A DNA stretch of 64,000 nt from Marsupella aquatica (GCA_973895155.1 OZ316892.1:12402238-12466237); one strand, 5' to 3'; positions 1,660 to 42,166 are shown, counted from the stretch's first letter. Numbers and translations are program-made. The notes: generated by a model not told the origin, from the letters alone.

Positions 1660-1820
1660 GTATGTGTGGGGTTTTCACTATCTCTTTCAATGAAGGAACA
1701 AACCAGATATTTCACGTACAGGTTAGATGCTTGATTACTAAAGCTACTACTCATGATGTGCTCCTTGGCCAAGGGACATTGTTTTTACTAGGCCTTACCA
1801 TTGCTATCTACACAAGGTAG
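1660..1820 (+). mobile_element. Protease-region relic of a related Gypsy element
   Basis: FTISFNEGTNQIFHVQVRCLITKATTHDVLLGQGTLFLLGLTI aligns with LTLTFNGGTDQELHFPVRCLVTNATTYDVLIGQEALFPPGFTI of the large element. Confidence 0.8.
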
Positions 1821-2324: not shown

Positions 2325-3812
2325 CAGTCGCAGAACTCGACTACCTTAACACTTAGCTCCAGCGTCGCTGACTTCGACGCCGAGCTCCCTTATGGTCCAG
2401 ACCTGGATAGGCCATCCGGGGAGGACTTAGCATGGGGAGACTTGTGGCCAATGAGATGTGGCACTGGCGAGGCAAGGGGCCAAGCTGGGGACACAAACTA
2501 AGGACTTGGACTAGCCTATGGCTGGTCGGGTCAAGGGGAAATGGGCCGGGCTCATGGATGGCCGTCCGGACCGTCGGATGGGCTTTGAGTTCTGAGGGCT
2601 TGGAAGTGAGCTCCTCTTGGGCCCAAGGCCAATGGAGTTGACGCCATTGGCAACGGACGCTTGGGGCGCAAGTTATGGCCCGAGCCGGGTTGGGCCGGTC
2701 GGGGGCCCCGAGCGGCGATCAGACTTGAGGGCCTAGGCATGAGCACTGGGTCGGCCCGGTCACTACGGGCTAAGACACTCCGCTTGCGGATGCCTATCAA
2801 GAAAGTTATGGGCGTTGCCAGTTGGTGGTGCGCCCATTATGCGCGATGGGATCCGGGTTGGGGGCCAAATGTTTAGGGACCAAACCTGGTCCGGGGGTGA
2901 CAGGTCTCCAGAAGCATATATGAGGGGAGTGGTGTCTCCCTAAGGGCTAAGGGCGAGCCGAAGTCGTGAGCCGCGGCGGTCGCGACACTAAGGGAAACCG
3001 CCAAACGGAAACGACGATATCTTCCCAACGGGAAGTCCGTTGGAGGACTTCTTAGGTGCATTGGAAAGCTCAGCTGGGTCTAGGGGTGCCATGGGTTCTT
3101 GTGGTTTGCGGGTGTTAGCTCGCCCGTTTACCAAATCCTGCCGAACAGCAGCCAAGCCGCGTTCAACCTCCCATGGGAGCTTGCGTTGGGGAGGCAAGGC
3201 CAAGTAGGTATGGAGGCTGAGTCCCAAGGGCGCTTGGTCCCTAGACCATCGGTGGGGCAAACCGAGAGTCGGTGTTAGAGTCGGGGCCAATCTGGTCCCG
3301 GCGTGTGGAGACAAGCTTGGGACAAGCTTTAGGACAAGCTACGCTATTTGGGCCATGAGCATGTCCTGAGGTCAGGGCGGTCAGTTGGTGATGGATAGGT
3401 ACGAGGGGGAACCCGGGCCGCGCCCAAGGAAGGGGCTGTCTTGGACGGACAGTGGGCGTGGGTTCTGGTTTCGGCTTATGGCATCGGGAGGACCTATCGC
3501 TGACCTATTTACCAACGTCTATTGAGCTTGAGTTAGGATGCTAGACTTGGCGAGTTCTAGATCCTGAAGGGTTACTTACCGAGGTACGTGGTGGCTTGTG
3601 CAGACAGTGAGGGCCGTTGAGTAGCGGTCGTGGAGGAGAGCAAGTGCGGCTTCGTATGGGAGGGGCCGCTGGAGGTGTGGGAGGGGCCGCTGGAGGTGCA
3701 AGAGGCACTAGGGTGCTTGCTCGAGGTATTCCGTGGAGGCGTCCGGGTACCGAGGGCACTTAGGCGTGAGTGTTGGGATTGGTGAGGGCGCTGGGTGGCT
3801 AGGTCCACCACT
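2325..3812. repeat. GC-rich degenerate repeat, copy 1 (uninterrupted; probably TE-derived)
   Basis: Colinear with 5692-6747 plus 16614-16952. Broken Pro/Ser-rich minus-strand frames; no recognisable domain. Confidence 0.85.
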
Positions 3813-5691: not shown

Positions 5692-6747
5692 CAGTCGTGG
5701 AACTCAATTACCTTAACACTTAGCTCCGGCGTCGCTGACTCCGACGTCGAGCTCCCTTATGGTCTAGGCCTGAATAGGCCATCTGGGGAGGACTTAGCAT
5801 GGGGAGACTTGTGGGCAATGAGACGTGGCACTAGCAAAGGCAAGGAGCCAAGCTGGTGACACACACTAAGGACTTAGGCTAGCTGAGAGCTGGTCGGGTC
5901 AAGGGGAAAAGGGGTCGGGCTCAAGGTCGACCGTCCGGACCCTCGGACGGACTTTGAGTTTTGAGGGCTTGAGTGTGAGCGGCGATGAGACCTGAGGGCC
6001 TAGGCATGATCACTGGGTTGGCCCAATCACAACGGGCTAAGGCACTCCGCTTGCGGACGCCTAACGAGGAAGTTATGGGCGTTGCCAATTGGTGGCGCAC
6101 CCAGTATGTGAGATAGGGTCCGAGTTGGGCCCAGAAGTTTAGAGACCAAAGTTGGTCCCGGGGTGGCAGGTCTTCAGAAGTATATATGAGGGGAGTGGTG
6201 TCTCCCTGGGGGCTAAGGGCGAGCCGGAATCGTGAGTCGTGGCGGTCGCGACACTAAGGGAAAAATGTCAAATAGACACGACGATATCTTCCCAACGGGA
6301 AGTCCGTTGGAGAACTTCTTGGGTGCGTTGGAAAGCTCTCAAGGAGCCCTCCTGAGCTCAACTGGGTCTGGGGGCACCATGGGTTCTCGGGGTTGGCGGG
6401 TGTTAGCTCACCCGTTTGCCAAATCTTGCCGAAACAACAGCCAAGTCGTGTTCAGTCTCCCAAGGGAGCTTCCGTTGGGGAGGCAAGGGCAAGTAGGTGT
6501 GGAGGTTGAGTTCCAAGGGTGCTTGGCCCCTAGACCATCAGTGGGGCAAACCGGGAGTTGGTTGCTAGAGCCGGCTCCATTCTGGTCCTCGCGTGTTGAG
6601 ACAAGCCTGGGACAAGCTTTAGGACAAGCTACACTACTTGGGCCATGAGCATGTCTTGGGGTCAAGGCGGTCAATTGGTGATGGATAGGTACGAGGGGGA
6701 ACCCGGGCCGTGCCCAAGGAAGGAGATGTTCTGGACAAACAATGGGC
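5692..6747. repeat. GC-rich degenerate repeat, copy 2, left part (insertion target)
   Basis: Aligns to 2325-~3457. Confidence 0.85.
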
Positions 6748-6923
6748 TGTCGTGACATATAGTATCGTAGCCATAGTGTATCAAAGACATACAAGTCACC
6801 GACAAGGCATTTGTTCAAGCTGCTAGCAACCAACAAGCATAGAAAAAGCCCAATCACATTCACAAGTGCCAAGAAAAAGCAAATGAAGTGGTATGTACGT
6901 AGTGGAGGTGTAAACCTCTGTAT
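6748..6923. repeat. Split repeat A, terminal copy (176 bp)
   Basis: Direct repeat of 7285-7459. Confidence 0.95.
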
Positions 6924-7282
6924 ATAAAAGGCGTAAGAGAAACAATTATACTGAAATCAAATCAAAAACTGGCAGGATGCCAAGATCGGCCAGGAGCATC
7001 TAACGAATCACTGTGTGAATCCCGTGTACAGAACCGACGAGCACTATCTGAGCTCTGTCAACAGCAATTCAAGAAGAACTGAAAAACCCACAAACAAAGA
7101 CATGCCCTAAGTAAACAAAGTCCTAGCATCACACTAACAAGCGCGTTTGCTTCAAGAACGCATGGCATTTGCTATAAGAACATGTCGCTAACTCAAGTAG
7201 TACACTTGCCCTAACTACATACCTAGCGGATATGCGAGGGACATGCCGATGTGCATAAGAGGCACTGTCCCTCGGCATGACA
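6924..7282. repeat. Split repeat B, internal copy (359 bp)
   Basis: Direct repeat of 16251-16609; about 16 substitutions by eye, no indels. Confidence 0.95.
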
Positions 7283-7284
7283 GC

Positions 7285-7459
7285 TGTCATGACATATAGT
7301 ATCATAGCCATAGTGTATCGAAAACATACAAGTCACCGGCAAGGCATTTGTTCAAGCTGCTAGCAACCAACATGCATAGAAAAAGTCCAATTACATTCAC
7401 AAGTGCCAAGAAAAAGCAAATGAAGTGTATGTACGTAGTGGAGGTGTAAACCTCTGTAT
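7285..7459. repeat. Split repeat A, internal copy (175 bp)
   Basis: Direct repeat of 6748-6923; separated from B by the dinucleotide GC. Confidence 0.95.
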
Positions 7460-7465
7460 CCCCCC
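7460..7465 (-). promoter_or_regulatory. Putative plus-strand primer (short polypurine G6 tract)
   Basis: GGGGGG on the sense strand, ~30 nt after the Pol stop and directly abutting internal repeat A. Confidence 0.55.
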
Positions 7466-7509
7466 AGACCACAGCCAAAAGGAGGGCTGAAGAAAATTCA
7501 GGTAGCACG

Positions 7510-7652
7510 TGGAGCACAGGAAGGGCAAAACCATAACCCTTCTGGCACCTGGGTAAGTTCAGGCCGAAGGCAGAAAAGATGGTACCCTCCATTGCAATTG
7601 TCACACAGCAGCATCTGGTCAGCATCATCAATTTGCAAACACACTTTGCAAG
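7510..7652 (-). CDS. PHD finger (C4HC3) at the integrase C-terminus
   Basis: CKVC..MLLCDNCNGGYHLFCLRPELTQVPEGLWFCPSC. Confidence 0.93.
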
Positions 7653-7699
7653 GGTAGTCCACAGGTGGAATCCAAGTGGGATCTAGGTTGGGCAGATGA

Positions 7700-8760
7700 C
7701 AAGGGGCACAATTCTTGGCATTGTCAGCAATTGTGCGCCCATCTGCCCCTTGTAACTCTAGCACTCTAGACGGTCGAATAGCCTTAACCCTGAGAATGGT
7801 ACGACTGGTAGAGGTGTCCAGGGTGTCGTTAGCTTGCCGCTGCAAGTACACAAAATCTCCCACATCAAACTTCCTGACCTTGGGCTGACAAGTGCCCCTC
7901 GTGTGTGTGCATAACGTAGTGTGTCCCTGTGTTGTGCAATGGCCAAATTCTCCATGGCCATGGGCATAACCCTCCTGAATAGGGCAGCCCTCTCAGAGAT
8001 CACATCAGACCAAGTCACAACTGAATCCAAGTCCACCACCTGAAGCATGTGAGCAGCAATAGCAGAAGGTGGAACTGGGTAACGACCAAACAACAAGAAG
8101 TAGGGAGAAAAGTTAGACAATGATGCATGTCTGGACATCCTATACCCCATGGCAATGTAGGGTAAGGCCAGGTCCCAATCCTCCTTGTTTTTGGTGAGGC
8201 AGATCTTCCGGAGGCCCTTCTTGCATGTCTGAACCATGCGCTCTGCCAAGCCATCTGCCTGTGGGTGATCTCGTGATGTCCGACGATGATCAATGAGGGC
8301 CTGATCAAGCAGCTCCTGGAACTCTCCTCTAAACTCTGAGCCCTGGTCAGTGAGACATTCTGCACAAGCTCCAAAGCGGCTGAGAACTTGTTGCAGGAAT
8401 GCCTGGCTGGTGCTACGGGAGGTCTTATCTGGCAATGCCACAAGTTCTATCCACTTGGAGAAATGCTCTATCATGATCATGATGTAGAGATTACTCCAAG
8501 ATGTGAGGGGTAATTCTCCAGCCAAATCACATGACCAACGATAAAACATGCGCTGAATAGGGAGTGAATGAAGTGTGGGTTGCCGAGATGTGAAAGAAGT
8601 TCTTACCCTATCACATTGCTCACACCGGGCAATAACATCTTGAACCTGGCCATGCATGCCTCGCCAATGATAATGGGGGACCAAGAGGCTATAAGTCCTC
8701 TTAATGCCAAAATGACCAAGCTCAGAATGTACCTTACGGATAAGGCCAACCCTCTCATGA
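7700..8760 (-). CDS. DDE integrase with HHCC zinc-binding domain
   Basis: HSELGH..CEQC; catalytic WSCDLAG, LTDQGSEF, GLAERMVQ; SPYFLLFGR. Confidence 0.95.
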
Positions 8761-9059
8761 ATGGGTGGAACCACCACTTCCCTATTTGGCAAGCAGCGCA
8801 CGAGATGATCTCCCTTCCACAAGTAGCGCTTGGACCTTTGCTGAATTTGGTCTCTCTGGGTTGCAGTAACCTGTATGGGATACTCCCCATGCTGCAAAAA
8901 TCTCAGAGTGTCGCTATCCTCCCATATGTCCACCATAGGTTGGTCAACAACATAGCATGGCAGCAAAACAAGATAGGTAGATGCATGAAATGTAGGCAGG
9001 ATGGAAACCTGGTCAAAATCCTGCCGTGCATCTGAGGAATCATCAGAGGCAATCAAAGG

Positions 9060-10400
9060 GCTGCGGGACATAGTGTCAGCATTTTGATGTGTCACACCAA
9101 GCCTATGAATTACCTCAAAATCATACTCCTGGAGTATGAGTGCCCAACGAGCAAGCTTGCCAGTAAGCTTGTCGTTGGTCATCAACCACTTCAAGGGCTG
9201 GTGGTCGGTGTAGAGAATAAACCTGGTCCCATAGAGATAGGGCCTGTAATGTATGATAGCCCACACAACAACAAGGCATTCACCCTCATACGAAGAATAA
9301 TGACTCTCTGCTTGATTGTTGCTCCTAGATGCATAGGCAATGACGTACTCTTTACCTTCCTCATCATGCTGGCCCAGAATGGCACCAATCCCAAGGGCAC
9401 TCCAATCTGTGTGTAGCACAAAGACCTTGCTGAAATCAGGTCTTTTCAGCACCGGGTATTCTGAAAGCTTCTCCTTCAAAGTGGCAAATGCTGCCTCAGC
9501 ATCTGTACTCCATGCCCAAGTCACATTCTTTTTCAACAAAGCATACAATGGGTGTGCAATGGTGCTGAAATCTTTGATGTAGATCCGGTAGTAATTGCAC
9601 AACCCAATAAAACTCCTCAAAGTGTGAACATCGGTAGGAGTGGGCATTTCCAAGATGGATATCACCTTGGCCCAGTGAGCCATGGTTCCATTTGGAAGAA
9701 TGCGGTGCCCAAGGTATACTACTAATCTGACAGCAAATTCACACTTCTTGGGGTGTATCTTGAGGTTCACCTTCTTAAGCCTCATGAATACCTCCTTGAG
9801 GTCAAGTAGATGCTGGTCAAATCCTTTGCTGTGGACCAACACATCATCAATGTAGCATTTCATAAACTCAGCACCTTGAAGAACTTGGTCCATGACTCTT
9901 TGAAAGAATATGGGCGCATTCTTCAAGCCAAATGGCATCACCAACCACTCCCATAGTTGGTTACTATCATGGAAAGCTGTTTTCTTGCGGTCCTTTGCAA
10001 GCAGCAAAATCTGGTTAAAGCCTTGCCTTAGATCCACAAGAGTGAAGATGTTTGAGTCTCCAATGCTGTCAAATAGCTCCTCTGGCCATGGCATGGGGTA
10101 CCTATCCTGGGGTGTGACCAGGTTCAGTGGCCTGTAGTCCCCACACATGCGCTTCTCTGTCCACAATCCACTGGAATCCTTCTTTGCTGGCATCACTATA
10201 GCTGCTGCAAAATTTGATGTAGATGGCTAAATAAGACCAGCTTCATATAACTCTTGGCACCTCTCATCCACCACCTGCCACTCATGCTTACTCAAACGAT
10301 GTCTCCGCCTGAAGATAGGTATTTCATTAGCCAACTCAATGGAGACCTGCATGGTCTTGCACTTACCCAAGTCCTTCATAGAGAAAGCAAACACGGTCTC
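9060..10400 (-). CDS. Reverse transcriptase and RNase H domains
   Basis: RMCGDYRPLN, VDLRQGFNQI, MPFGLKNAP, YIDD (9843-9854), YLGH; RNase H motifs TDWSALGIGAIL, YTDHQPL, NADTMSR. Confidence 0.95.
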
Positions 10401-10809
10401 ATGCTTGAGGAGCAAATTCAGCAGCTGGTCCTTCTGTCTTTTACTCAGGTGGTTGCCCATGATGAATGTGTAGTTGGCAACACTAGGAATAGGACCTGAT
10501 GTACTCGTGCTTGAAGAGCCAAAAGTGCTAGCCTCTCCACTAACCAAGCTGCTAGCATGCTGTTGATAAGGTGATAAGGCCTCTCCAAGGCCTGTTGTAT
10601 CTATTGCTCTGGTCTGATCCACACCATGAAACTCAGAAATAATATCAGCCACGTTACAAGGGACCTCCTCCCCCCCAACACTTGGACTGAAGCGGTGAGT
10701 GTTGAATAGAGGTAAGTGCACTTGGTCTGGATGCCATGTAGCAGCACCATGGAGTGGTAGGGCTGGAACTCCTGATGCTGGATGAATGTACATCTGAAAA
10801 AGGATGCAA

Positions 10810-11760
10810 GTGACCAAAAGCCAAGTGACAGCATTAAGATCCATTACCCTGCCAAGTAAAGCATTCCTGGCCAGCTTGGTGATTTTGGTGTGGCATGTAG
10901 TACCGGGTTGGAAGCCCATAGCCCGTTCTCTCTCCTCAGGACTAGGTTCATCCCATGTACCGGTAGAATGTCGGTAAACCAGGCCAGGACCATCACCCTG
11001 AAAAGCATGTGCACCTGGAAAGGACACAAATGTAGGCCAAGCAGCACGGGGCTGTCCAATGGTATTGGCTGAATACCAAGGTGCTGGCTCTTGCCGTGTA
11101 ACTAGTTGGCAAGAACTGTCAGGATCCAAAATCTGGTCCACTGTGAGGTTAGTGTCCCTGGATGTGTGGTGAATCTGAGCTAACTCCAACAAGGAAGGTG
11201 GTGCAAGGTTAGTCCAAAAGTTACGAAGACGATGTGCATAAGAACCACAGTACACTGCATCAATGAGAAGGGGTGGTCCTAAGTAATGTTGGACCACACT
11301 GAAATCCTCTTTGACCTGTGGACGCTGGTCAAACTGAGATGGAGTATTCTCAATGATATAGCCAACAGCAGGATAAAGGGATTGAGCCCAGGTGAGAATC
11401 TGAACCAATGCTGTGAAAAGGCCAGAACGAGAATCATGCAGTCCAGCATCGTGACCAACAGCTGGAAACCCTTGGCATTCCCAACCAGCTATGATCAAAT
11501 CAAGGGAGCCAAGAAGGGTTAAGTGTTGGTGTTGGACAAGCTGGATATTTGGAGGGAAGAAAGAAAATGCAGACTTCCATGCACTGTGTGGAAACTGTTG
11601 GGGAAATCGCTCTGAAAATTCCAGTAGACGGGATTCAGCCACTTGCCTTGCACCTGGATCAATGTCCACGTAGATGTACTGCTTCACCACCATCCCAGAC
11701 TGTAGAAGAGCTTCCAGGCATGTAGAAATGCCACCAAAAAGCTCAAGCAATGTAAGGCCA
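10810..11760 (-). CDS. C5-cytosine DNA methyltransferase domain, DNMT3-like, embedded in Pol between protease and RT
   Basis: Motif I LLELFGGI; II YVDID; IV DLIIAGWECQGF (catalytic Cys); VI YIIENT; VIII DAVYCGSYAHRLRNFWTNL (cf. DNMT3 AHRARYFWGNL); IX/X EERERAMGFQPGTT..ARNALLGR (cf. DNMT3 EMERVFGFP..ARQRLLGR). Confidence 0.92.
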
Positions 11761-12119
11761 TCCGGAGGAGGAGTCCATGTAACTGGTGCGCTCAAGATTG
11801 GGGCTATTGGTTGTCCATTGTGCTGCCCAAGGTCCTCAAATTTGCGCAATGCAGCCACCAAAGGTCCATGGGCTACTTGGAGCCATTGTACCACCTCTGG
11901 TTGATGATCCACGTTGATGGAAAGTGCTGCTATACGTGCAGCAGCATGTGCAGCAGCCACCTCATCATCATCCTCCTCAATCCAGTCCTGCAATTGGTGG
12001 TTGACATAGGTAGCTGTGTGCACTGCTTTCAAAACACAGTGGTGAGCCATAGGTGTATGAGCACCATGCAAATCAAGTGGAATGTAGCCCAAGTGTGAGC
12101 CATCCGTATGCCAATCAAC

Positions 12120-12480
12120 TCTGTAGTATGCATGCTCATGCCAGTTGTCAATGGTAAAACCTGGTGGGAACAAAGCCTCCTGGCCAATGAGCACATCATA
12201 CGTAGTGGCATTGGTAACCAAACATCTGACTGGGAAATGGAGTTCCTGATCTGTACCTCCATTAAAAGTGAGAGTTAGTAAAGTAGAACTCTCACCCAAC
12301 ACATCCTCCACAGTGCCACTAGCAGGCCGAATGTGCCACTTGGATTGTTGTAAATGATCAGTCAGTAGTCTCATCTTCTTGGCAAACTGAATGCCCAATA
12401 TCACTGGTTGAGCACCTGTGTCTAGCATGATCACCTGAGGAGTGTGACCCTCCAACTTGACCGCTGAATTCCTGTTGTCA
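12120..12480 (-). CDS. Retropepsin (aspartic protease) domain
   Basis: VIMLDTGAQPVI active-site motif (~12414-12422) and YDVLIGQEAL C-terminal motif. Confidence 0.85.
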
Positions 12481-13598
12481 ACAATGGCAATGGTGGTGGA
12501 AACTGAAGTCCTGTCGCTAGGCACCACTTTTGGCAAATGATGAGGTACTTTGTGAAGGGAGTTAGTGTCCACGGTCTTTCCATTCAACAGCATAGTCAGG
12601 AAAGATGGGGCAGCATGACCAGGATCAAGTGTAGCTCTAGTCACACAATCTGCAGCAATACTGTCATCTCCACCATTGGAAATTGGTACTGGGATAGCCA
12701 AACCAATGGAAATATGTAATGGAGAAGAAGAAGGTCCAGTATGTACATGAGATTGGACCTCCAAAACTGGTGTCACAGGGGCTGATGAAGAATGCAGTGA
12801 GCCCTCTAGCGCTTTGATGACAGCTCTAGCATCCAGTTGTAAATCATGGCAACTGAAAAGTGGAGTTGTAAGAATCCTTTGTGCCATACCGGAGGTGAAA
12901 TGCTCAAGCAGCTCAGGAGAAACAACTCCCTGTGAAATGTCAACAGCACCTAGTGGTGGAATGGATGTAGCTGCAGCTCCCTCCCCCCTCGCCAACAAGG
13001 TGCGCTCTTCAGCAAGTGTGAATGGCTGAAAAGATTGGGGCATGACAGCCCGAGCTCCCCTGGCTCTAGTCATAGGATCGGCAACAAGACCATTAGCCTA
13101 TACAATGCGGCGTGTGGGAGCAATGCGGGAGGCTGCACTAGCCTGCTGGTAAGCAAAATAGGAAGGGCAGAATGAATCTAAAAATTTTGCTGTAAGGCCA
13201 GGCTGTGTAGGAGATGACAGCACACACTCACCCATATGAGCATCAAATGGCAAGCCATAGAAAGAGCGGGGTAGAGATGCTGAACTGTCAATGGTGTCTG
13301 GGCCCGGGATGGGTTGCACGTGACCAGCCGGTTGAGAAGGACCAGCAGAGGCACGTGACTTGCCTTTGATGTTGGCAAGTTGGGCACGTAGGGACTCAAC
13401 CTCATGAGTCAGAGACTGAAGTTGAGTTGCCTGTGCATTGTGAGCCTCCTTCTGAGCTGGTTGCTTCTGTTGCTGCTTGGGCAATTTGTTGGCACTGGGT
13501 GCTTTGCCACTGGAAGGAGGAGCAACTGATGCAGTAGGAGCCCTCCTAACTGGTGGGGGAGTGGAAACAGGAGCAGGATGAGTGGCCTGTTGTCGTAG

Positions 13599-14872
13599 CT
13601 ACTTCCTCTCTAGGAATTTGGCAAAACAAACTGCCTCCAAGTGGCCCACTTTCCCGCAAAAATCACAAGACAAGTCCTCAGCAACAATATCACATTCATT
13701 AGCCTTGTGATTGGGGTTACCACAGTAGTTGCAAGATGGCAGCATGAAAGCAGCATGGGCTGGCTTGGTCTTGGAACCATACTGTGGCACACGGGAAGGG
13801 GTGGCCAGTGTAGGGGCAGCAGCCTGGTACCTGGATCGCGGTGGACGCACAATACTGGCCTCATAATGTGCATGGGCCAACTCAAGTTTCTCAGCAGTGT
13901 CATAGACATTGAGCAGGGTGTAGCTGTCTCCAAACTTTGAGAATACTTGATGCAACACTTGCGAATGGAGAGCTGGTGTGCCCTCCAATGCGCGAAGATA
14001 GCAATGAGCAGCTTCCAGGTCAGTGATGCTCTGGGTGTCCTCCTTCAGCTTGAGAAGCCGGCAATACATCATCTTCAAGGTTTCATGCGCTGCCTCACAA
14101 AGGTGGCCAACTGCATGATTTTGTCAGCACTCTTGATTGGGAATTCCAATTGAAAAACCTGCAAAAACTCAGCCACTGGATCAGCAAAGGCAGGAGAATC
14201 AATGGTGGGAGAAATGCCTGATGTAGCCTGTGCCAAGACAATGGGAGTAACTAGCGTAGTGGTAGGAACTGGAGTAGGAGGGGAAGTGGCAGGAGCAGCA
14301 GCATGGGCTGCAATGGCATTCTGTAAGGCCAATTGTGAGGCTGCCGCAATTGCACTGGCATAGGTAGGGTTAGGCAACTGTGTGATAGCAAGCAGCCGTT
14401 GAGAATGCTCCTCATACACATCCAAAGCCTCATGGTGCACAAACCTCGCTAGCTGCTTAAATGCAAAAGCATTTATGAAATTGCTGCCATACTTCAACTC
14501 CAATTCGTATACGACAGTGTAGAAAGTGGATTTGAACTCACGCAAAGAAACAGTGTCTGGTTGCTCGCTGAAGCGCTCAATGCGGCCAGATGAGTGGCTG
14601 ACATCCATGCTGTATGTCGATGAAGCTGGAACAATCACTGATGCAGAAGGAGTAAAGGGCAGAGAAGCGATAGCAGGCTTCGGGGTAGTGGTAAAGCGAC
14701 CGCCAAATGTAGCAGAAGGATTGCGTGGTGTGGGTGTTGCTGCTGTCTGTTGGCGTCGTCGAAATTGCCGAGACTCCAAAGAAATTGGCACCAACGGTCG
14801 TGGATCACTCCGTAAGTGGTACCTGGGTGTCGGTGGTGATGTATTGCTACCTCCTGGCTCGTCTGCTGACAT
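13599..14872 (-). CDS. Gag-like region with two CCHC zinc knuckles (frameshifted)
   Basis: CNYCGNPNHKANEC and CDFCGKVGHLEAVC match CX2CX4HX4C. Confidence 0.85.
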
Positions 14873-16237
14873 ATTGTGTTGCAATACCCGATATACTGAA
14901 AACATGCAAAATGTGTAAACACAAGGAAAAACCGTCACCGTCGAAAAACCATCGGGGAAAAAGGACCCTTAAAACCTCAAATTTAGCCCCCTTCACGTTT
15001 GCCTATGTATATGCCAAATTGACTGTCCGGTGTGTATACACCGGGCCGTATGCAGATGACCTGACGTCGGCGATAGCAAAGGAATATGAGGAAAATGGGC
15101 CCCCTGAAGTGTATACCTCGGGCCCCTATGTGGACCCAAAAACCGAAGGACTGGCCGGCCCCAATGCCCTATGCTGTCATCCCGCGCGCGGTGAATGAGC
15201 GAGAACGACCGAAAATAAAAAGAAAAGGGCCTGAATTAAGTGTATACACTTCGGACAGTCGGCGAAGGGAAAGAAATGGCGGATGTAGGGGGCCCCTCTT
15301 AATGGCACGAGCCCTGCATAGGGCTTCGTGCCCCCTCCTTATGAGCTCCCGAAAAGGGGTTATGAGCTTCCCCCTCCTCTCCTTCAATGTAATGTGGGCC
15401 TCGTGCCCTGGCAAAAGACTCCCGTGTGAGTTGGAATTTAACTCCCCTCCCCTCCTTTAATGCTGCCTCGCTTCCCCCTGGCTTGACAACTTGTGCTCAA
15501 CTTCCCCTCCCCCCTACTTTTAATGCTTCATAGGGCCTCGTGCCCTCTCCCTCCTTGTGCGAAAATCTACTCTCAAGAGGAGGGAGTTTGTACTCCCCCC
15601 CTCTCTTAATGCTGGCAACGGAAGGTCGAGGCTAAAACGAGGCGAGGAGGAGGCTAAAGAGAAACGAGACCCCCCTATGTGAGTAAGGAGGAGCGAAGGG
15701 AGGGCGCGCGGCCCTATGCGTGGCTTTGGGGCATTGATGAGCCCCGCATGTGTATACTCAGGCTACAGGTAGGGCAATGGCAGGATTGGGAGGCAGCTCG
15801 AGATGGCAGTTGTCGAGTAAAGAAAAGGGGTCGCGGCCAGGAAACAGCTCGCAACGGGAGCCGCCTGAACAAAATGGAAAAAGGGGAGAAATTGGCCGGG
15901 AAACACCAAAAAATGGCCTCGCGTATGTCGATCAACAGCAAGTCGCCTCCACTTCATGGCAGTCGATTGGCAGTTGAAAGTAGGTCGTGCTGCGGCGCTG
16001 AAGCAGCAGTTGGCAGCGGCCGGAAACGAAAAACCCTGAAAACAAAGCGCGAAGGAAAAGAGGGACGGGGGGCCTATTTGACTTAAGTGTATATACTTAA
16101 GTGTATACACACAAGCCATAACTTCCACCCCATCGCTCAACGTTTTTCCATAGAAATTGCACCGGCATCAACGGAAAAATGTCAATTGTCTCGAGCAATT
16201 GAGAAGCACAGCGTCTCCGATCTTCTTCCCCTCATCA

Positions 16238-16252
16238 CAGTTCTTCTTGAAT
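16238..16252 (-). promoter_or_regulatory. Putative self-priming primer-binding site
   Basis: Sense ATTCAAGAAGAACTG lies at and just after the end of B. It is the exact reverse complement of sense CAGTTCTTCTTGAAT inside B (7067-7081; one mismatch in the 16394-16408 copy). No TGG-initiated tRNA PBS is present. Confidence 0.7.
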
Positions 16253-16609
16253 AAAAGGCGTAAGAGAAACAATTGTACTGAAATCGAATCAAAAACCGGC
16301 AGGATGCCAAGATCGGTTGGGAGCATCTAACGAATCACTGTGTGAATCCCGTGTACGGAACCGACGAGCACTGTCTGAGCTCTGTCAACAACAATTCAAG
16401 AAAAACTGAAAAACCCACAAACAAAGACATGCCCTAAGTAAACAAAGTCCTAGTGTCACACTAACAAGCGCGTTTTCTTCAAGAACGCCTGGCATTTGCT
16501 ATAAGACCATGTCGCTAACTCAAGTAGTACACTAGCCCTAACTACATACCTAGCGGATATGCGAGGGACATGCCGATGTGCATAAGAGGCACTGTCCCTC
16601 GGCATGACA
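16251..16609. repeat. Split repeat B, terminal copy at the element's 5' end (359 bp)
   Basis: Direct repeat of 6924-7282. Confidence 0.95.
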
Positions 16610-16613
16610 GGGC

Positions 16614-16952
16614 GTGGGTTCTGGTTCAGGCTTATGGCATCAGGAGGATCTATCGCTGACCTACTTACCAATGTCTATTGAGCTTAAGTTAGGATGATAG
16701 ACTTGGGGAGTTCTAGATCCTGAAGGGTTACTTACCGAGACGCTTGGTTGCTTGTGCAGATAGAGAGGACCATTGAGTAGCGGTCGTATTAGAGAGAGCA
16801 AGTGTGGCTTCGTATGGGAGTGGCCGCTGGCGGTGCAAGGGGCACTAGCTAGGTTGCTTGCTCAAGGTATTCCGTGGAGGTGTTTGGGCACCAAGGGCAC
16901 TTAGGCGTGGGTGTTGGGATCGGTGAGGGTGCGGGTGGCAAGGTCCACCACT
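16614..16952. repeat. GC-rich degenerate repeat, copy 2, right part
   Basis: Aligns to ~3458-3812; resumes exactly after the TSD. Confidence 0.85.
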
Positions 16953-19589: not shown

Positions 19590-20780
19590 TAGGGTTACAC
19601 AGGCTACTAATCTCATACCAGACCGTAGTAACCCGGACCAAGACTCTAGTAACCCAAACCAGACCCCATTATCCGAAATACCAGTGCCCAGGCACAAAAA
19701 GAAAGTGATGGGGCATGGGGAAATAGCTAACTAAGTATGCAGGGGGGGAAATCGCTATACAGGGTTACACAAGGCTGCTAATCTCATACCAGACCCTAGT
19801 AACCCAAAACAGAGCCCCATTATCAGAAATACTAGTGCCCAGGCACTAAGGGAAAGTGATGGGGCATGGCGACAATACGATACAGGGTTAGTTACACAGG
19901 CTACTAATCTCATACCAAACCCTAGTAACCCAAGCCAGACCCCCATTATAATATCAGTGCTCAGACACGAAGGGAAAGTGATGGAGCAATGCGGCAAATA
20001 GCCATACAGGGTTACACAGGCTACTAATCTCATACCAGACTATAGTAACCCAAACCAGACCCCATTATCCAAAATACCAGTGCCCAGGCACGAAGGGAAA
20101 GTGATGGGGCATGGGAAAAATAACGATACAGGGTTACACAGGCTACTAATCTCATAGCAGACCCTAGTAACCCAAGCCAGACCCCCAAAATACCAGTGCC
20201 CAGGCACAAGTGATGGGGCGATGGGGCAAGTAGCGATACAGGGTTACACAGACTCTAATCTCATACCAGACCCTACTGTAGTAACCCGAGCCAGACCCCC
20301 ATAATCCAAATACCCGTGCCCAGGCACAAAGGGAAAGTGATGGGGCATGGGGCAAATAGCGATACAAGGTTCAAGAGGCTAGTAACCTCATACCAGACCC
20401 TAGTAACCCGGACCAGACTCTACTGTAGTAACCCAAACCAGACCCCCATTATCTGAAATACCAGGCAAATAGCGATAAAGGACTACTAATCTCATACCAG
20501 ACCCGAGTAACCACCAGACTCTACTGTAGTAACCCAAACCAGACCCCCATTATCCGAAATACCAAGCAAATAGCGATACAGGGTTACACTCACTACTAAT
20601 CTCACACCAGACCCGAGTAACCACCAGACTTTCCACCAGACTTTACTGAAGCAACCCAAACTAGACCCCCATTATCACCAGACTCTACTGTACCAACCCA
20701 AACTAGACCCCATTATCCGAAATACCAGTGCCCAGACACGAAGGGAAAGTGATGTGGCAAGGGCAAATAGCGATACCGGA
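19590..20780. repeat. Tandem array, ~125-bp unit, ~9 partly truncated copies, upstream of UBP1
   Basis: Recurrent AGGGTTACACAGGCTACTAATCTCATACCAGACCCTAGTAACCC...CCAGTGCCCAGGCAC...GAAAGTGATGGGGCATGG. Confidence 0.9.
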
Positions 20781-34662: not shown

Positions 34663-35548
34663 TTGAACCTGGGACCTTTCACATGCCATGGTCTTGGCAC
34701 GGATATAAATGATTGATGCCGGAATGGGGACTACAGTAGAGGCCGTTGATTAATAGTATAGGGGGGATGGTTGGCGAGCGAGTGAGGGTCCGGCCCGGCC
34801 GCACAGAAGCAGGTACGGTGGGATAGGTTCGTTGGCGGGGGCTAGATCTGAACGGGGTCGGAGGCTTCCGGAGCTCCGCGCTTTCCGGACAATTTACCCT
34901 CCGAGCCCTCTTTCCTTTCTTCAAGCAAAAGCTCCACTCTTCTGTAAACGCTCGCTTCTCGACACCCTTTTTCTCCATCTTCATGCTCGCCAATACTGTA
35001 ATACTCTCTCGTCTCTCGTCGATGTAAAGCGCCACTTTCTCTCGCTCTCTCTCTCGCTCCCTCTCTCCGGGTTCTTCTCTCCGGTTTTAGTGCCTCTTCT
35101 CTCGCCTCTCGTCGTTGTAAAGGTCGAGAGAAACGAAAATTACGGGCTGGGCTTGAAGCGATGCTGTAGTAGAATTCGCGTCTTCGTAGCAAAGATTCGG
35201 CGTGCTGAATTACTGAGCCCCACGCGTGTCTGCCTTCTGGGATTTGGTTTCATGTTTGGATTCGTACATTCGGGTCAGGGACGAGGGCGGAGCTCAGGAG
35301 ATTGGAGTGGAGCGTTTGTGGGCATTGAATCTGTTTCTCTCTCTCGGCGTTCTCTTTTGTTCTTGGAGAAGGGTAGGTCTTTGTGCGCGGGACGAAGGAC
35401 GAGAGAGACGAGGCGGAGGATCCTATAATTCTTTGAAGCTGGCAGTTAGGTTTTGAGGATCGTTTCGGTCAGAGTAGTGATCGAAAGATAGGAATTGGGT
35501 GTCTCAAGTCGGTCGAGGCGAAAGGGCGGTTTGGGAGGAAGTGGAGGG

Positions 35549-37994
35549 ATGGAAGGGGGAGATCAATCGGAATCAGTGCAGCAATTTTGTGCTGTGACAG
35601 CGGCAACTCCAGAGCAGGCGCGGTTCTTCTTAGAGAGTTGTCAATGGCAGCTCGAGACTGCGATCCACTCGTTCTTCGAAAATGATGCGGGACCGGCACC
35701 GATTTCCCCGCAAGATTATGACGAGCAGCGGGAGGAAGAGGAGGAGGAAGAGGAAGAGGACGACGATGATGAGGAGTTTCTTCCTCCCGGTGCGGCGTCT
35801 AGAACTGCAACCTCTGCTGCAACACCTGCACCGGCACCTGCGACAGTTGCTGGTTCTGGACAGAATCCGTGGGGCACGCGCTCCTCGGGGCCAACGCAAG
35901 GGTCAGGGGCTTTTGGAGCAGCGAGTGGTGGTTCCAGACCAAAATCTGGCAAGGACAAAGCCGCAGCCAGGTCGAATGGTGGACGAGGGGGAATTACGAC
36001 ATTGTCCGATCTCAATAAGCATCCGGATTCGGATAGCGATTCGGACGGGCCTCAGGAGTACTACACCGGAGGAGAAAAGAGGTATACTGTTTCTGCCCTG
36101 CCTCCGGACGTTCAAAATATTTATTCTTCTAAGAATTGCGTAAATATGGAGCTTCGGATTATGTAAAGTGCTACTGATAGTGGCAGACAGTCGTCGGGCA
36201 CCGGTGAATTCTCGTTGTATGTGTTGTTGGTTACAGTTACTTTCTCACTTGTCCTGAGTCCACCTGGATTGGAAAGCGATGGTGTCATAGTAGTTCTTTC
36301 AATGTAACTCCCGACTTATTGGGACTTGGTTGTGAGATGGACCTTCCTTCGTGACTTGCACCCAACCATATCCTATTTTTTTCCAGCGAACTATCTTGGC
36401 ACTTCTAAGTCCGAGCGCTTGCGCCAAGTTTTAAATCTGTACTTTTGTACTATCTTTACTTTCCTTATGTGTGCCTTCCATCTTAAAAAGTTTTTTTGAC
36501 CTAGTTTCATTAGCAGCTGGGCACCTATGCCCCCATCTAGAGAGAACCCTTGACCTAGTTTCACATATTGTCGGCACCAAGTGGCGGATTACATTTACCT
36601 GTTAAGTGTGATTGTAGTGATGGATCGATATAGTGATTGTGTGCTCAGCCTCATGCTGAAAGTTGGGGTATGGGTTATATATCCCGGCAGAGCGGAGATG
36701 CCCAGTATAATGATATGCAGGACCCGTAGGGACGTTATTAATACAGTATCTTTTTTTAGGGTTAAAACCTATATTTTTCAGGAGCAGATGTTACGAATGG
36801 TTGAAAAGACAATGTTATAGATTCTTAAATTCACCGTATTTGGTTGCAGTGGTATGATGGTGCAAGATCCTACTCACAGAAATAACAGAGATGTGGATTC
36901 TATTTTTGATCGAGCTCGACAATTCGGAGCTAGAGAAGGGATTGAAGCTCCACCGGCTCCGAGTAACAGGGGAGCTTTCAGTGGTCAAGGACGAACTCTG
37001 TCAGGGGCAGTACCACAACAGGGGCAGACACCATCAGCACCTGCGCCACCAACACCTGTATTTCACACAATAACTTTCTGGAGAAATGGTTTCACAGTTG
37101 ACGACGGCCCTCTAAGAAGGCTAGATGATCCTGCCAATGCTCCGTTCCTCGCAGTGAGTATTACTAGGGCATTAATGATCATACTTGACTTTGTCCTTGG
37201 CATGGCGTTAGTCTTGAAACATAGCCATGGATCATCAGTCTTCTTCCCTTAGGCAAGATCATCACTATTAGTAAAAGGCGCAAAACGATTGTGGACGTTC
37301 AAGCAGTTTCCGGCTCTGTGACCGTGTACTGATCGATGACATATGTTGCAGAGTATCAACAAGACAGAGTGTCCACGGGAGTTGGAGCCAGCTGATCGAA
37401 ACACACCAGTGCACGTGAATCTTGTGAAGAAGGATGAAGAATTTCAGGTGTGGTGTGGAAACCGTCTCTCCTCAGCCATTTTTGCGGAACTGATGACTTT
37501 TAGCATATTTGTCCAGGCTGTGATAGCATACTCAAGATTTCATGTTAAAGCTCATAGAGCCCATGCGTGGTATACTGAAATGGTGCTGACGTTCGCATTT
37601 GTAGGCTCCGCCAGAACCGAAGTATGTGGCATTTCAAGGTACAGGGAGGACTCTTGGAAGCTCAAGTACACCAGTTGATGCATCTTCAGCCCCGCCTGCT
37701 GCAATAGCTGTTTCCAGGGAACCCGCAAATCAGCCATTACAAGGCTTGGTTGTCGATGATACAAAACCGGCTACTTCGATTCAGCTTCGCTTGCAGGACG
37801 GAACTCGTTTGGTTGCCCGCTTCAACCATTCGCACACTGTTGCAGATATTCGAGGTTTTATTGATGCTGCAAGACCTGGCCACTCAGGGCCTTACAGTTT
37901 ACAATCTATGGGCTTCCCTCCAAAGCAGCTATCTGACTCTACTCAGACTATCGAACAAGCAGGCCTTATAAATGCAGTTGTAATCCAAAAGTGA
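35549..37994 (+). CDS. Plant UBX domain protein, p47/NSFL1C-like (UBA-SEP-UBX; PUX3/4/5 family), 4 exons
   Basis: [22 protein letters not shown] (UBA), [35 protein letters not shown] (SEP), [10 protein letters not shown] (SHP box), [26 protein letters not shown] (UBX). Exons 35549-36081, 36850-37153, 37352-37447, 37605-37994. Confidence 0.95.
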
Positions 37995-38939: not shown

Positions 38940-40420
38940 AATAAAGTAGGACCTGGCAATGATGGAATTTGTATGTACGAAGGAAAGTTACAACTCAATG
39001 GGTAACTATCTAACGGTGGGATCCTAACAGATAAAAATGCCATTTTCATGAATTTTCTCTGTGCACTGGTACCATTTCGTGAAGCTCTGGCGGGAGTATG
39101 GATGACCACCTAAATCTTTTCATACGCAAGCTTGAATTGCTCAAGCTCAAGCTTTTGAGCTCTCCATTGTTTGAAGGAATCTCTGCAATCATCATCCACT
39201 TCTGATGCCCTCATAGTGAACAAATTTGGTCACTGCCATATCCCTGTGGGCATAAGCTGCAATCCAAAATTGGTGACTGCCATATCCCTTTGGGCGTAAG
39301 CTGCAATCCTTTGAATTGGTGATTACCAGATCCCTTTGGACATAAGCTGCAATCCAAAATTGGTGACTGCCATATTCCTTTGGGCATAAGCTGCAATCCT
39401 TTGAATTGGTGATTGCCATATCCCTTTGGCCATAAGCTGCAATCCTAAAAGCTGACTCTTCACTCTTGAGCTTCTCTCACGCCCTCATACTGAAACAAAT
39501 TGTGATTGTGTGACTGCCGTGTCCTTTGGGCATAAGCTGCAATTAAAAAAACTGGCTCCTCACTTTTGAGCGTCTCTCCCTTTGGGCATTAGCTGCAACT
39601 CTAAAAACTAACTCTTCATTTTTGAGCTTCTCTATGCAGTCATACTGAACAAATTGTAAATGCGCTTACCTGTAGCAGCCATATCCCTTTGGGCATAAGC
39701 TGCAATTCAAAAAGCTGACTCTTCACTTTTGAGCTTCTCTGATGCCCTTTCACTGAACAAATTGTGAATGCTCTAACCTGTAGCAGCTTCAAATGCTTGG
39801 ATTGGTGTTGCCATAACCCTTTGGGCATAAGCTGCAGTCCAAAAAACTCCTCACTCTTGAGTTCTTGGCAGCCTTGTTGCCCATGGGTTGTTTATTGCTG
39901 TTAAATTCTCCAGCAGGAGTGTTATCACAATCATTTGGGTTAATGATTTCTGGAGTATGGGGTGGAGGGTACATTCTCCTTGTCTGTAGTAAATTCCCTT
40001 CCCTTTCTCCACTCTGTACCCTTTCCCTTCTTACCTTTCTGTTTATGTGGGCAATCTGTCAACAAGTCAAGAGTCAATGAAGGTAAATTCCCTTGCGCTT
40101 GGTAGTGATCTTTCAACAAGAACCAACAGTCAATGAAGGCAAATTCCCCTCCCTTGGGATCATGTGGCTTGGTGATGCTCTCTTGCCTTATGCAGAGTGT
40201 CTTCTTGATTGGCATCAGAAAGTCTGTGATATTTTACATTAGATTACAAACCTGAAAACATGACAATGTCATGATTCAAATCTCCCCATTTGCTCTCCAA
40301 TGATCTTGCTCCTCTCTCCTGTGTAGTCTTGGCCTGTGTTAATTGTAGTGTGCCACATTGGAGTCATAACGTCCTTAGAGCATAGGATCACATGTGATCA
40401 GTGGTAGCAAGGATGATTCT
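38940..40420. mobile_element. Possible degraded PIF/Harbinger element (transposase relic on +, Myb/NAM-associated ORF relic on -)
   Basis: + strand ~38985-39055 resembles YxMGYYLADGIYP..F after frameshifts. - strand shows GEFAFIDCWFLLKD and KQPMGNKAAK, typical of PIF ORF1. No TIRs located. Confidence 0.4.
39225..39865. repeat. Tandem/interspersed repeat, ~42-bp core, ~9 copies
   Basis: Recurrent GCCATATCCCTTTGGGCATAAGCTGCAATCC. Confidence 0.9.
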
Positions 40421-41129
40421 CACCGTTCAATGGCGGCAAGACTAGGAACTCTCAGCTGTTGCCGACGGATGGCATGCAACTCCATGACGTCTCCCGGCTC
40501 GCTTGTTGAGTGTGGGAGTGCCGTGCTGAGAGTATAAAAAGCCAGGGCCGGGTTGATATGATTAAACCCCTCAGAACTGGCTAAAGCCCTGGTTACTATA
40601 TACAAGTTACCAAGGGTGGAGTTCTAGCTGCCAGACAGTCATCTCTTTGCTTCACTCCCCTCCACTTACTGTGTGCACGCTAAATCCAACGGGAGGCAAT
40701 GGTGCATTATAGAAAATAATAACCCCTCAGAACTTGGGCTGTAGCCCTCATTATTGGGGCAATATAGCCCACAAAGCCCTGATGATTGTGTACAAGTTAC
40801 CAAGGGTCCAGGGTTCTAGCTGCCAGATGGTCAGTTTGTAGCTTCCCTCCCCTCCATGTGCCACGTGCTCGCTAAATCCAATGGCATGTGATGGCCCATT
40901 ACAAAAAATAGGAACCCCTCAGAACTTGGCTAAGACTCCTGTTTTGGGCATGAGAGCCCACATAGCCCTGGTTACTACACACAAATACCAAGGGTCAAGG
41001 GTTCTAGCTGCCAGAAGATCATCTCTTCCCTTCCCTTCCCTCCACATGAAGCATACTTGCCAAATCCAATGGCCGATGGCGCATTACAGAAAATAAGAAC
41101 CCCTCTGAACTTGGGTAAGACTCATTTTT

Positions 41130-41765
41130 GGGAGCCCACAATGCCCTGGTTCTATTCAAACTACCAAGGGTAAGGGGTTCTGAGCATGAGAGCCCTTCAA
41201 GCCCTGGTTACTATAACTTACCAAGGGTCAGGGGTTCTGAGCTCGAGAGCCCTGAATGCCCTGGTACTATACAAATGACTAAGGGTCAGGAGTTGTGAGC
41301 ATGAGAGCCCCGGAAGCCCTGGTTACCATACAAATTACCAAGGGTCAGGGGTTCTTAGCATGAGAGCCCTTAAAGCCCTGGTTACTATACAAATGAGTAA
41401 GGGTGAGGAGTTCTGAGCATCAGAGCCCTGGTTACCATACAAATTACCAAGGGTCAGGGGTTCTGAGCATGATAGCCCTGAAAGCCCTGGTTACCATACA
41501 AATTACCAGGAGTCAGGGGTTCTGAGCATGAGAGCCCTTAGAGCCCTGGTTACTATACAAATTACCAAGGGTCAGGTGTTCTGAGCATAAGGGCCCTGAA
41601 AGCCCTGGAAACTATACAAATGACTAAGGGTCAGGAGTTGTGAGCATGAGAGCCCTTCAAGCCCTGGTTACTACACAAATTACCAAGGGTCAGGGGTTCT
41701 GAGCATGAGAACCCACAAAGCCCTGGTTAGTACACAAATGACCCAGGGTCAAGGGTTCTAGCTGC
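41130..41765. repeat. Tandem array, ~60-bp unit x~11, upstream of TIC40 (longer related units at 40560-41130)
   Basis: Recurrent AGCCCTGGTTACTATACAAATTACCAAGGGTCAGGGGTTCTGAGCATGAGAGCCC. Confidence 0.92.
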
Positions 41766-42166
41766 CAGACCGTAATCTCTTCGCTTCTGTCCACGCGCCG
41801 TGTGCTCGCGCAATCCGACGGCAATCGGCGTCCGCATTCCAGAAATGCTCGAAAACTGGAGAACGCAAAGCGAGAACAGAAGAACGCCCACAGAGAGAGC
41901 AAGATCCCCGGAGAGCACTGCAGACGTCGAGCAGAATCAGAGGGCAGACGAAAGGAAGCACGGGGAGAAGGAGAGTGGAGAGAGAGGATCACGAGGAACC
42001 AAACGTGAGGGTGGTTAGTGAAACGAGGAGGCAGGTAGGGCATTTCGAATTGGATACTTGTCCGGAAGACGAGGAAGATTTCGGAGGATTTCGGAGGGAT
42101 TGGAAGGGTTTGAGAGAGGCGAAGGAGGAGAGAGTGATACCGTAGAGCGCTTGCAGGCAGGTGGTC

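Follow-up and report, generated by a model that had tools for sequence, protein, structure and literature searches.

A split-repeat Ty3/Gypsy element of Marsupella aquatica and its relatives: a proposed route of integration through a site inside the long terminal repeat

We describe a Ty3/Gypsy retrotransposon of Marsupella aquatica in which the long terminal repeat (LTR) is divided into two segments, A and B, that recur in a split order around the coding region. The element lies in a 64,000-nucleotide stretch of DNA analysed at its full length (GCA_973895155.1 OZ316892.1:12402238-12466237; the window), where it occupies positions 6748-16609 (9,862 bp) on the minus strand. We propose, with a probability of roughly 0.7, that the RNA of this element primes its own reverse transcription, that the resulting complementary DNA (cDNA) has the form A-GC-B..A-GC-B, that integrase cuts this cDNA at the upstream CA-GC-TG site and inserts it with a 4-bp duplication, and that the original cDNA ends become joined to each other as B|A. 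The repeat order, the TG..CA termini, the 4-bp duplication, the positions of the G-tract and primer site, the compensatory pairing between primer and primer-binding site (PBS), the 2-nt spacer, the indel-prone B|A junction and the homogenisation of the two A copies can all be read directly from the copies examined.

Read in the sense direction, the element begins with a 359-nt B repeat (16251-16609), whose first bases, TGTCATG, form the integrated 5' end; this is followed by the PBS (16238-16250), a leader, gag and pol, a G-tract (7460-7465; the polypurine tract (PPT), C6 on the plus strand), a 175-nt A repeat (A1, 7285-7459) that starts ATAC directly after the G-tract, the dinucleotide GC, the second 359-nt B (6924-7282) and a terminal 176-nt A (A2, 6748-6923), whose end, CACGACA, is the integrated 3' end. 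The two A copies are 94.9% identical and the two B copies 95.6%. B and A2 adjoin at 6924/6923 without a gap (TTTTAT|ATACAG), and this B|A junction is the predicted join of two cDNA ends. The integrated termini are TG and CA; GGGC stands on both flanks as a 4-bp target-site duplication (TSD; 6744-6747 on the sense 3' side and 16610-16613 on the sense 5' side, both plus strand), and an empty paralogous site at 3454-3457 (plus strand), within the other copy of the host repeat, has a single GGGC with flanks that align gap-free to both flanks of the element. The G-tract adjoins A and the primer site adjoins B, so that the priming signals bound the 536-bp A-GC-B unit, which has AT..AT ends, rather than the TG..CA unit. 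The coordinates, the B-[gag-pol]-A-GC-B-A order, the termini, the duplication, the empty site and the placement of the priming signals had all been put forward in a first-pass annotation of the window, and re-examination bore them out.

Within the internal A-GC-B unit lies a 16-bp palindrome at 7276-7291 with the 10-bp core GACAGCTGTC (GACA-GC-TGTC, spacer at 7283-7284), which resembles an attachment (att) site. Its outer symmetry is probably the product of a C-to-T change, since the terminal A ends in CACGACA. A canonical LTR layout is absent on two counts: there are no two complete and equal LTRs, the 5' end being B only in the window and in all 24 related 5' ends described below, and the PPT does not lie beside the TG of the LTR, nor the PBS beside its CA. 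Instead, the G-tract precedes ATAC (CA in the third family) and the PBS comes after AT.

B itself contains the complement of the primer site, 15 nt long in the 3' copy, where the self-primer segment spans B positions 201-215, and 9 nt long in the 5' copy. A 12-nt primer in two related families, at 29-32 nt from a TATA, pairs in the same way with the site adjoining B. The matching segment lies 31-33 nt after a TATA motif in the second family, where 17 of 24 sites have their best match (at least 12/16) at that segment and the others have indels or decay at the site, and 29-30 nt after TATA in the third. Primer and site have changed in a compensatory manner at two positions between the window and the second family, and at two positions between two members of the third family (L070 and L081). 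From this pairing it is likely that the element RNA primes its own reverse transcription in the manner of Tf1. With the G-tract ahead of A, both predicted cDNA ends fall within the integrated copy; under the standard scheme the minus strand would start at the end of B and the plus strand at the start of A, which would give A-GC-B..A-GC-B, and neither end of this cDNA would be an end of the integrated element. The predicted cDNA ends carry the same dinucleotide, AT..AT in two families (window 7458-7459 and 16251-16252), a direct repeat and not TG..CA; in the third family they are apparently CA..CA (L081 near 6947 and 7415).

Relatives of the element were collected in a metagenome scan, which returned 80 loci with 53-83% pol identity to the window element and was selective for pol. 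The A and B of these relatives have no blastn match to those of the window, and for this reason the second family is treated as separate from that of the window; its members nevertheless keep the boundary between G-tract and A and the motif CACGACA-NN-TGTCA[TC]G despite their diverged repeats. Loci with shared flanks were merged into independent ends (L011 and L050, for example, count once). Each of the 24 independent 5' ends begins with B, with no A ahead of it, and the 39 independent 3' ends comprise 25 of A-B-A type, 11 with A only and three that are otherwise damaged. The recurrent B..A-GC-B-A order that the first-pass annotation had anticipated is thus present across the family; the mirror order, B-A-GC-B..A, which it had allowed for, is absent from the 24 5' ends. 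Solo B-A units, also expected, were not seen among the A and B hits in the 80 loci, a weak test given that the loci were chosen for pol; of the three reverse-strand hits there, one is an incomplete A and the other two are 5' B copies with their primer site behind them. None of these relatives carries a pair of complete TG..CA LTRs together with a tRNA primer site, the outcome that the first-pass annotation had named as refuting its reading.

At 16 sites both ends of a copy could be compared. Seven have a perfect 4-bp duplication, four have one mismatch and five have more mismatches, and none of the 16 matches at 3, 5 or 6 bp; among mismatched flank pairs 1/240 match, in a control that used an incorrect right-end value for the L008 row. 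Troyka elements make a 3-bp TSD, so that the comparison with Troyka suggested earlier does not hold for either the 4-bp TSD of the window or those of its relatives. AGC stands directly before TG in three of the 24 left flanks (L048 3934, L049 730-733 and L066 4125-4128) and resembles the att spacer; a target preference is possible. One B..A copy with a perfect ATGG duplication has the first 99 nt of its 5' B tandemly duplicated (L077 3674-3772).

The third family (L070, L081 and L082; 54% pol identity) has a 108-nt A after the G-tract and keeps the site CACGACA-GC-TGTCACG; all three families thus conserve CA-NN-TG. Its member L082 reads G-tract-A-GC-B-A, with B followed by a second A. In L070 and L081, A-GC-B is followed by the primer site, which is the topology of a 1-LTR circle; we do not count these as evidence of circles, because the two ends of L081 overlap by 127 nt, as is typical of an assembly loop. 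L081 and L082 are eukaryotic retrotransposon contigs inside a cyanobacterial genome bin, likely through contamination.

The window family itself was followed in the contigs of four sequencing runs, compared with window positions 7240-16700; one of these runs may be the source of the window. The B|A joint (7459 to 16251) is present in 7, 7, 0 and 1 contigs of the four, and the clade to which the element belongs appears to be very abundant in them.

If B|A is a join of two cDNA ends, it would be expected to behave differently from a site copied by reverse transcriptase (RT), and the related copies show such a difference. Indels occur at B|A in 9 of 23 A-B-A sites, or in 7 of 21 when L015 and L036, whose inserts are seen at 5' B ends as well, are set aside, and at none of 26 CA-NN-TG att sites, where the spacer is always 2 nt. 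These counts leave out L008, L011 and L080, where a large deletion or unrelated DNA disrupts the junction, and L035; in L008 and L080 the large deletions touch B|A. The background of within-copy comparisons is 30 indels in 5,927 nt, from which about 4% would be expected at the junction, and the excess is significant both by binomial test (p 1e-7 for 9/23 and 1e-5 for 7/21) and by Fisher test (p 4e-4 and 2e-3). B|A thus seems to behave like a join that is remade in each cycle, and the att site as expected of one copied by RT. Of the 26 att spacers, 10 read GC and 14 read GT, AC or AT, as C-to-T decay of CAGCTG would produce. Both A copies of an element appear to come from one template: a 1-nt subfamily indel is found in both A1 and A2 in 8/8 copies and is absent from both in 15/15 (p 2e-6), and the identity of A1 to A2 is greater within copies (0.908) than across them (0.878), being higher in 20 of 23 copies. 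The A repeats are thus homogenised within copies.

The coding region includes the integrase that would act on these sites. In Pfam matches the protease comes first, then RT and RNase H, then HHCC with the integrase core, and last a PHD finger, with a CCHC knuckle on the gag side; this is the Ty3/Gypsy order with a DNA methyltransferase (DNMT) domain inserted between protease and RT. On the minus strand of the window, gag lies at 13098-14968 in three stop-separated pieces that include the CCHC knuckle, the aspartic protease and a DNMT3-like C5 methyltransferase (about 10728-11780) at 10227-13097, RT, RNase H and integrase (HHCC; D567-D627-E662) at 7758-10226, and the C-terminal part of integrase with the PHD finger (PF00628, E 2e-12) at 7498-7992 in a frame shifted with respect to pol. 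The window copy is decayed, as its gag and pol frames are interrupted by stops and frameshifts. Its DNMT domain matches PF00145 at E 4e-4, which is under the curated cut-off (the relatives P0121 and P0050 are above it), and its best PDB matches are DNMT3A (E 2e-4), with the catalytic Cys aligned; the domain is present in 49 of the 51 related loci that have enough upstream DNA. The integrase keeps its DDE (Asp-Asp-Glu) catalytic residues and HHCC motif and, with the TG..CA ends and a 4-bp TSD that falls in the 4-6 bp range of the group, agrees with assignment to Ty3/Gypsy. The second D and the E are 34 residues apart, which makes it a D(34)E enzyme and not one of D(35)E type. Among proteins that match one regular expression, 78 of 88 share D(34)E, from liverworts to Tetraselmis, and 9 of the 10 with 35 residues fall in one outlying group that includes chromodomain-bearing matches. 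The shortening lies just after the second catalytic Asp, in the part of the protein with which HIV integrase touches its target DNA, and D(34)E may mark split-LTR elements at the protein level.

Among named sequences, homologs are found in Calypogeia, Riccia, Klebsormidium, Closterium, Tetraselmis and Sphagnum, the nearest being from Calypogeia fissa, in line with a bryophyte host, and the viral contigs searched hold no relatives. A quick tree places P0056 and P0065 of Klebsormidium nitens in the same 73-row group as the element (Shimodaira-Hasegawa-like approximate likelihood-ratio support 86); neither has a DNMT match, and both are K. nitens sequences that are not established as copies of KnitGypsy-Dnmt3, an element discussed below.

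These data suggest a model for the integration of the element. We propose that integrase cuts GACA-GC-TGTC in the upstream LTR to leave CA-3'OH ends with 2-nt overhangs, that these ends are inserted with a 4-bp stagger, and that the blunt ends left by RT are joined to each other, before or after insertion, either by the end-joining machinery of the host or by an RT jump. If both strands were cut in a staggered fashion behind CA, each end would carry a CA-3'OH and a 2-nt 5' overhang, just as LTR ends do after ordinary processing. Integrases of retroviruses are able to cleave circle junctions that are palindromic (PMC4372172). In this model only the upstream att is used. Its LTR would be double-stranded after about 0.5 kb of synthesis following the second strand transfer, and the downstream LTR after about 9 kb; since the upstream LTR is completed earlier, integrase could engage its att first. 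The layout would be stable because the internal A-GC-B of each integrated copy is a template that restores the full LTR. Homologous recombination would convert it to B..A (A with A) and to solo B-A (B with B). We regard as speculation the idea that the element's own DNMT3 marks which of the two att sites is used.

The first-pass annotation had placed a circle ahead of integration, with the att site inside one LTR opened by integrase. The family-wide layout, the behaviour of B|A as a remade join and the conserved CA-NN-TG site support the use of this site, while the symmetric form of the idea, a free and covalently closed 2-LTR circle opened at either of two equal att sites, is distinctly unlikely. 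Such a circle would yield the observed repeat order exactly, the indels at B|A resemble end joining, and the 2-LTR circles of human immunodeficiency virus (HIV) can be reopened by integrase (PMC4372172); it also predicts B-A-GC-B..A in about half of insertions, against none in 24 5' ends (p 1e-7, or 2e-4 allowing 40% later loss), and it survives only with an added bias to the upstream att, whereupon it merges with the route proposed here. The sequence is compatible with joining before integrase acts, as a true circle, with joining at a later point and with an end-to-end jump of RT. Extra RT template switches have been proposed for PAT/Ngaro elements, and a comparable scheme, in which no internal cleavage takes place and RT itself builds the TG..CA ends, for example by a plus-strand end-to-end jump together with stops at the palindrome, before ordinary integration, would explain the fixed asymmetry directly. 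The repeat order here equals the A1-B1-A2-B2 of PAT/Ngaro (PMC4157794), and gains or losses of 1-3 bases at B|A fit an RT jump as well. We nonetheless consider it unlikely, for both strands would have to stop precisely at the palindrome without a known signal, a minus strand primed at the end of B cannot have its 5' end at the end of A, and the invariant 2-nt spacer better matches a staggered integrase cut. It is very improbable that a tyrosine recombinase acting in trans integrates the element as in DIRS/PAT/Ngaro: the repeat order is shared with those elements, but the TG..CA ends, the 4-bp duplications at unrelated sites and the intact catalytic residues of the DDE integrase speak against it, and no recombinase matched among the 11 element open reading frames scanned, which cover part of the 21 frames found. 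A one-off rearrangement, nested insertion or assembly error is in effect refuted; the window copy is decayed and lies inside a repeat, as that would suggest, yet the B|A junction recurs in other runs, and the layout is repeated in another family, by 13 relatives with both ends, and also in the third.

Several observations weigh against the proposed route. Several parts of it are inferred: where the transcript starts and stops, where the cDNA ends lie, that the cut is made by the element's own integrase, and that the ends are then joined. The timing of synthesis is offered as the most economical reason for the use of a single att. The window B has no clear TATA before its primer. Of the B|A junctions, 14 of 23 are exact, and the junction lies in an AT-rich stretch, so that slippage could lift its indel rate above the average background used. 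Eleven of the 39 3' ends have A only; one insertion site has A-B-A in L029 and A alone in L052, and at least some A-only ends are therefore secondary or due to assembly collapse. Five of the 16 two-ended sites lack a TSD (at least two mismatches), and the relatives are old copies in short-read assemblies. Finally, the summed depth of the B|A joint is about 1,400, as against about 5,000 (run X1) and 30,000 (run X2) for G-tract length variants beside A, a difference that is unexplained; contig depth does not equal copy number, and joints need longer contigs.

In its architecture the element has a published counterpart. KnitGypsy-Dnmt3 of K. nitens combines Gypsy domains with a Dnmt3 domain, and a figure legend (Fig. 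4) states that its repeats are arranged as in DIRS, an order given in the same paper as A-coding-B-A-B (de Mendoza et al. 2018, PMC5890265). Our element likewise has a Gypsy pol with a Dnmt3 domain and the same repeat order, and probably belongs to this group. In view of that legend the repeat order is already in print, and the architecture is not new; the accessible text on KnitGypsy-Dnmt3 is silent on termini and TSD, on a priming site or an internal att, on a PHD finger and on the mechanism (PMC5890265). Gypsy-7a_cRei of Chlamydomonas has "LTR subparts" and a PHD finger, with a repeat order not readable from the legend (PMC9940879). Our literature search, which did not reach Repbase Reports, theses, subscription journals or the supplements of bioRxiv 10.64898/2026.05.21.726589, turned up the 2018 legend alone and no account of the termini, TSD, self-priming, internal att, D(34)E or mechanism. 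The architecture is known, and on sequence grounds the proposed integration route appears well supported.

The element is neither a DIRS/PAT/Ngaro element nor one of canonical two-LTR layout. In PAT/Ngaro elements the internal junction mimics joined termini. They resemble our element in their split direct repeats, A1-[coding]-B1-A2-B2 (PMC4157794); unlike them, it has a DDE integrase in place of a tyrosine recombinase, together with TG..CA ends, a 4-bp TSD, a G-tract and a primer site. Tf1/sushi elements and the plant Tcn1 chromoviruses share with it a primer site complementary to the predicted RNA 5' end, without a tRNA (PMC4600332, PMC6317226), whereas it differs in having a PHD finger and not a chromodomain, an incomplete 5' LTR and priming signals that lie away from the integrated TG and CA. 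The 2-LTR circles of HIV-1 and foamy virus offer a parallel for integrase acting on an internal palindrome of two abutted ends (PMC4372172; compare PMC1180852 and PMC1905944). There the circle is a back-up route, is cut at its junction and restores a normal genome (PMC4372172); here the predicted cut falls inside the LTR, apart from the junction, and permutes the LTR, and the route looks to be the normal one.

A further parallel is found among bacterial DNA elements. In the copy-out-paste-in transposition of IS3, IS911 and IS30, a DDE enzyme acts on two ends abutted across a 2-3 bp spacer, and the junction is made by the transposase without reverse transcription. Our element would be like these in the predicted action of a DDE enzyme on ends abutted across a short spacer and differs by reverse transcription. 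We lean, by a little, towards the wider reading that a green-lineage Ty3/Gypsy clade has moved its att inside the LTR and integrates as a rule through end-joined, circle-like cDNA, its D(34)E integrase cutting two abutted ends at once as the counterpart of IS3/IS30.

Around the element, the host DNA consists in part of two repeat copies that are 84-87% identical and about 3.3 kb apart (2325-3812, and 5692-6747 with 16610-16952), the second of which received the insertion. The empty site is present in 31 contigs of run X2, and the host repeat is therefore itself multicopy. An inverted 127-nt match (72%) between window 1677-1803 and the protease region at 12149-12275 is probably a fragment of a related element. 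Degenerate tandem arrays lie at 19594-20768 and 39415-42823, with units of about 120, 100, 59 and 90 nt, and a host-gene exon at 35492-36163 (plus strand) encodes an N-terminal UBA-like domain (PF14555, E 8e-17).

In the textbook account, retroviruses and LTR elements insert a linear cDNA by its two ends, circles being dead ends or a back-up, and such LTR elements are not known to take the route proposed here as a matter of course. The clade described here would be a natural system in which a DDE integrase apparently works as a matter of routine on an internal site of abutted ends, with the trace readable in every genomic copy. A defined 10-bp substrate would make it possible to test the old question of a circular precursor, which reportedly goes back to Panganiban and Temin. 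Structure-based LTR finders require two equal LTRs (PMC6317226), and in the genomes of bryophytes and algae the clade is for this reason likely to be under-annotated or wrongly classed as DIRS-like. The rise of split direct repeats in an integrase element would also bear on how the layouts of PAT/Ngaro elements evolved.

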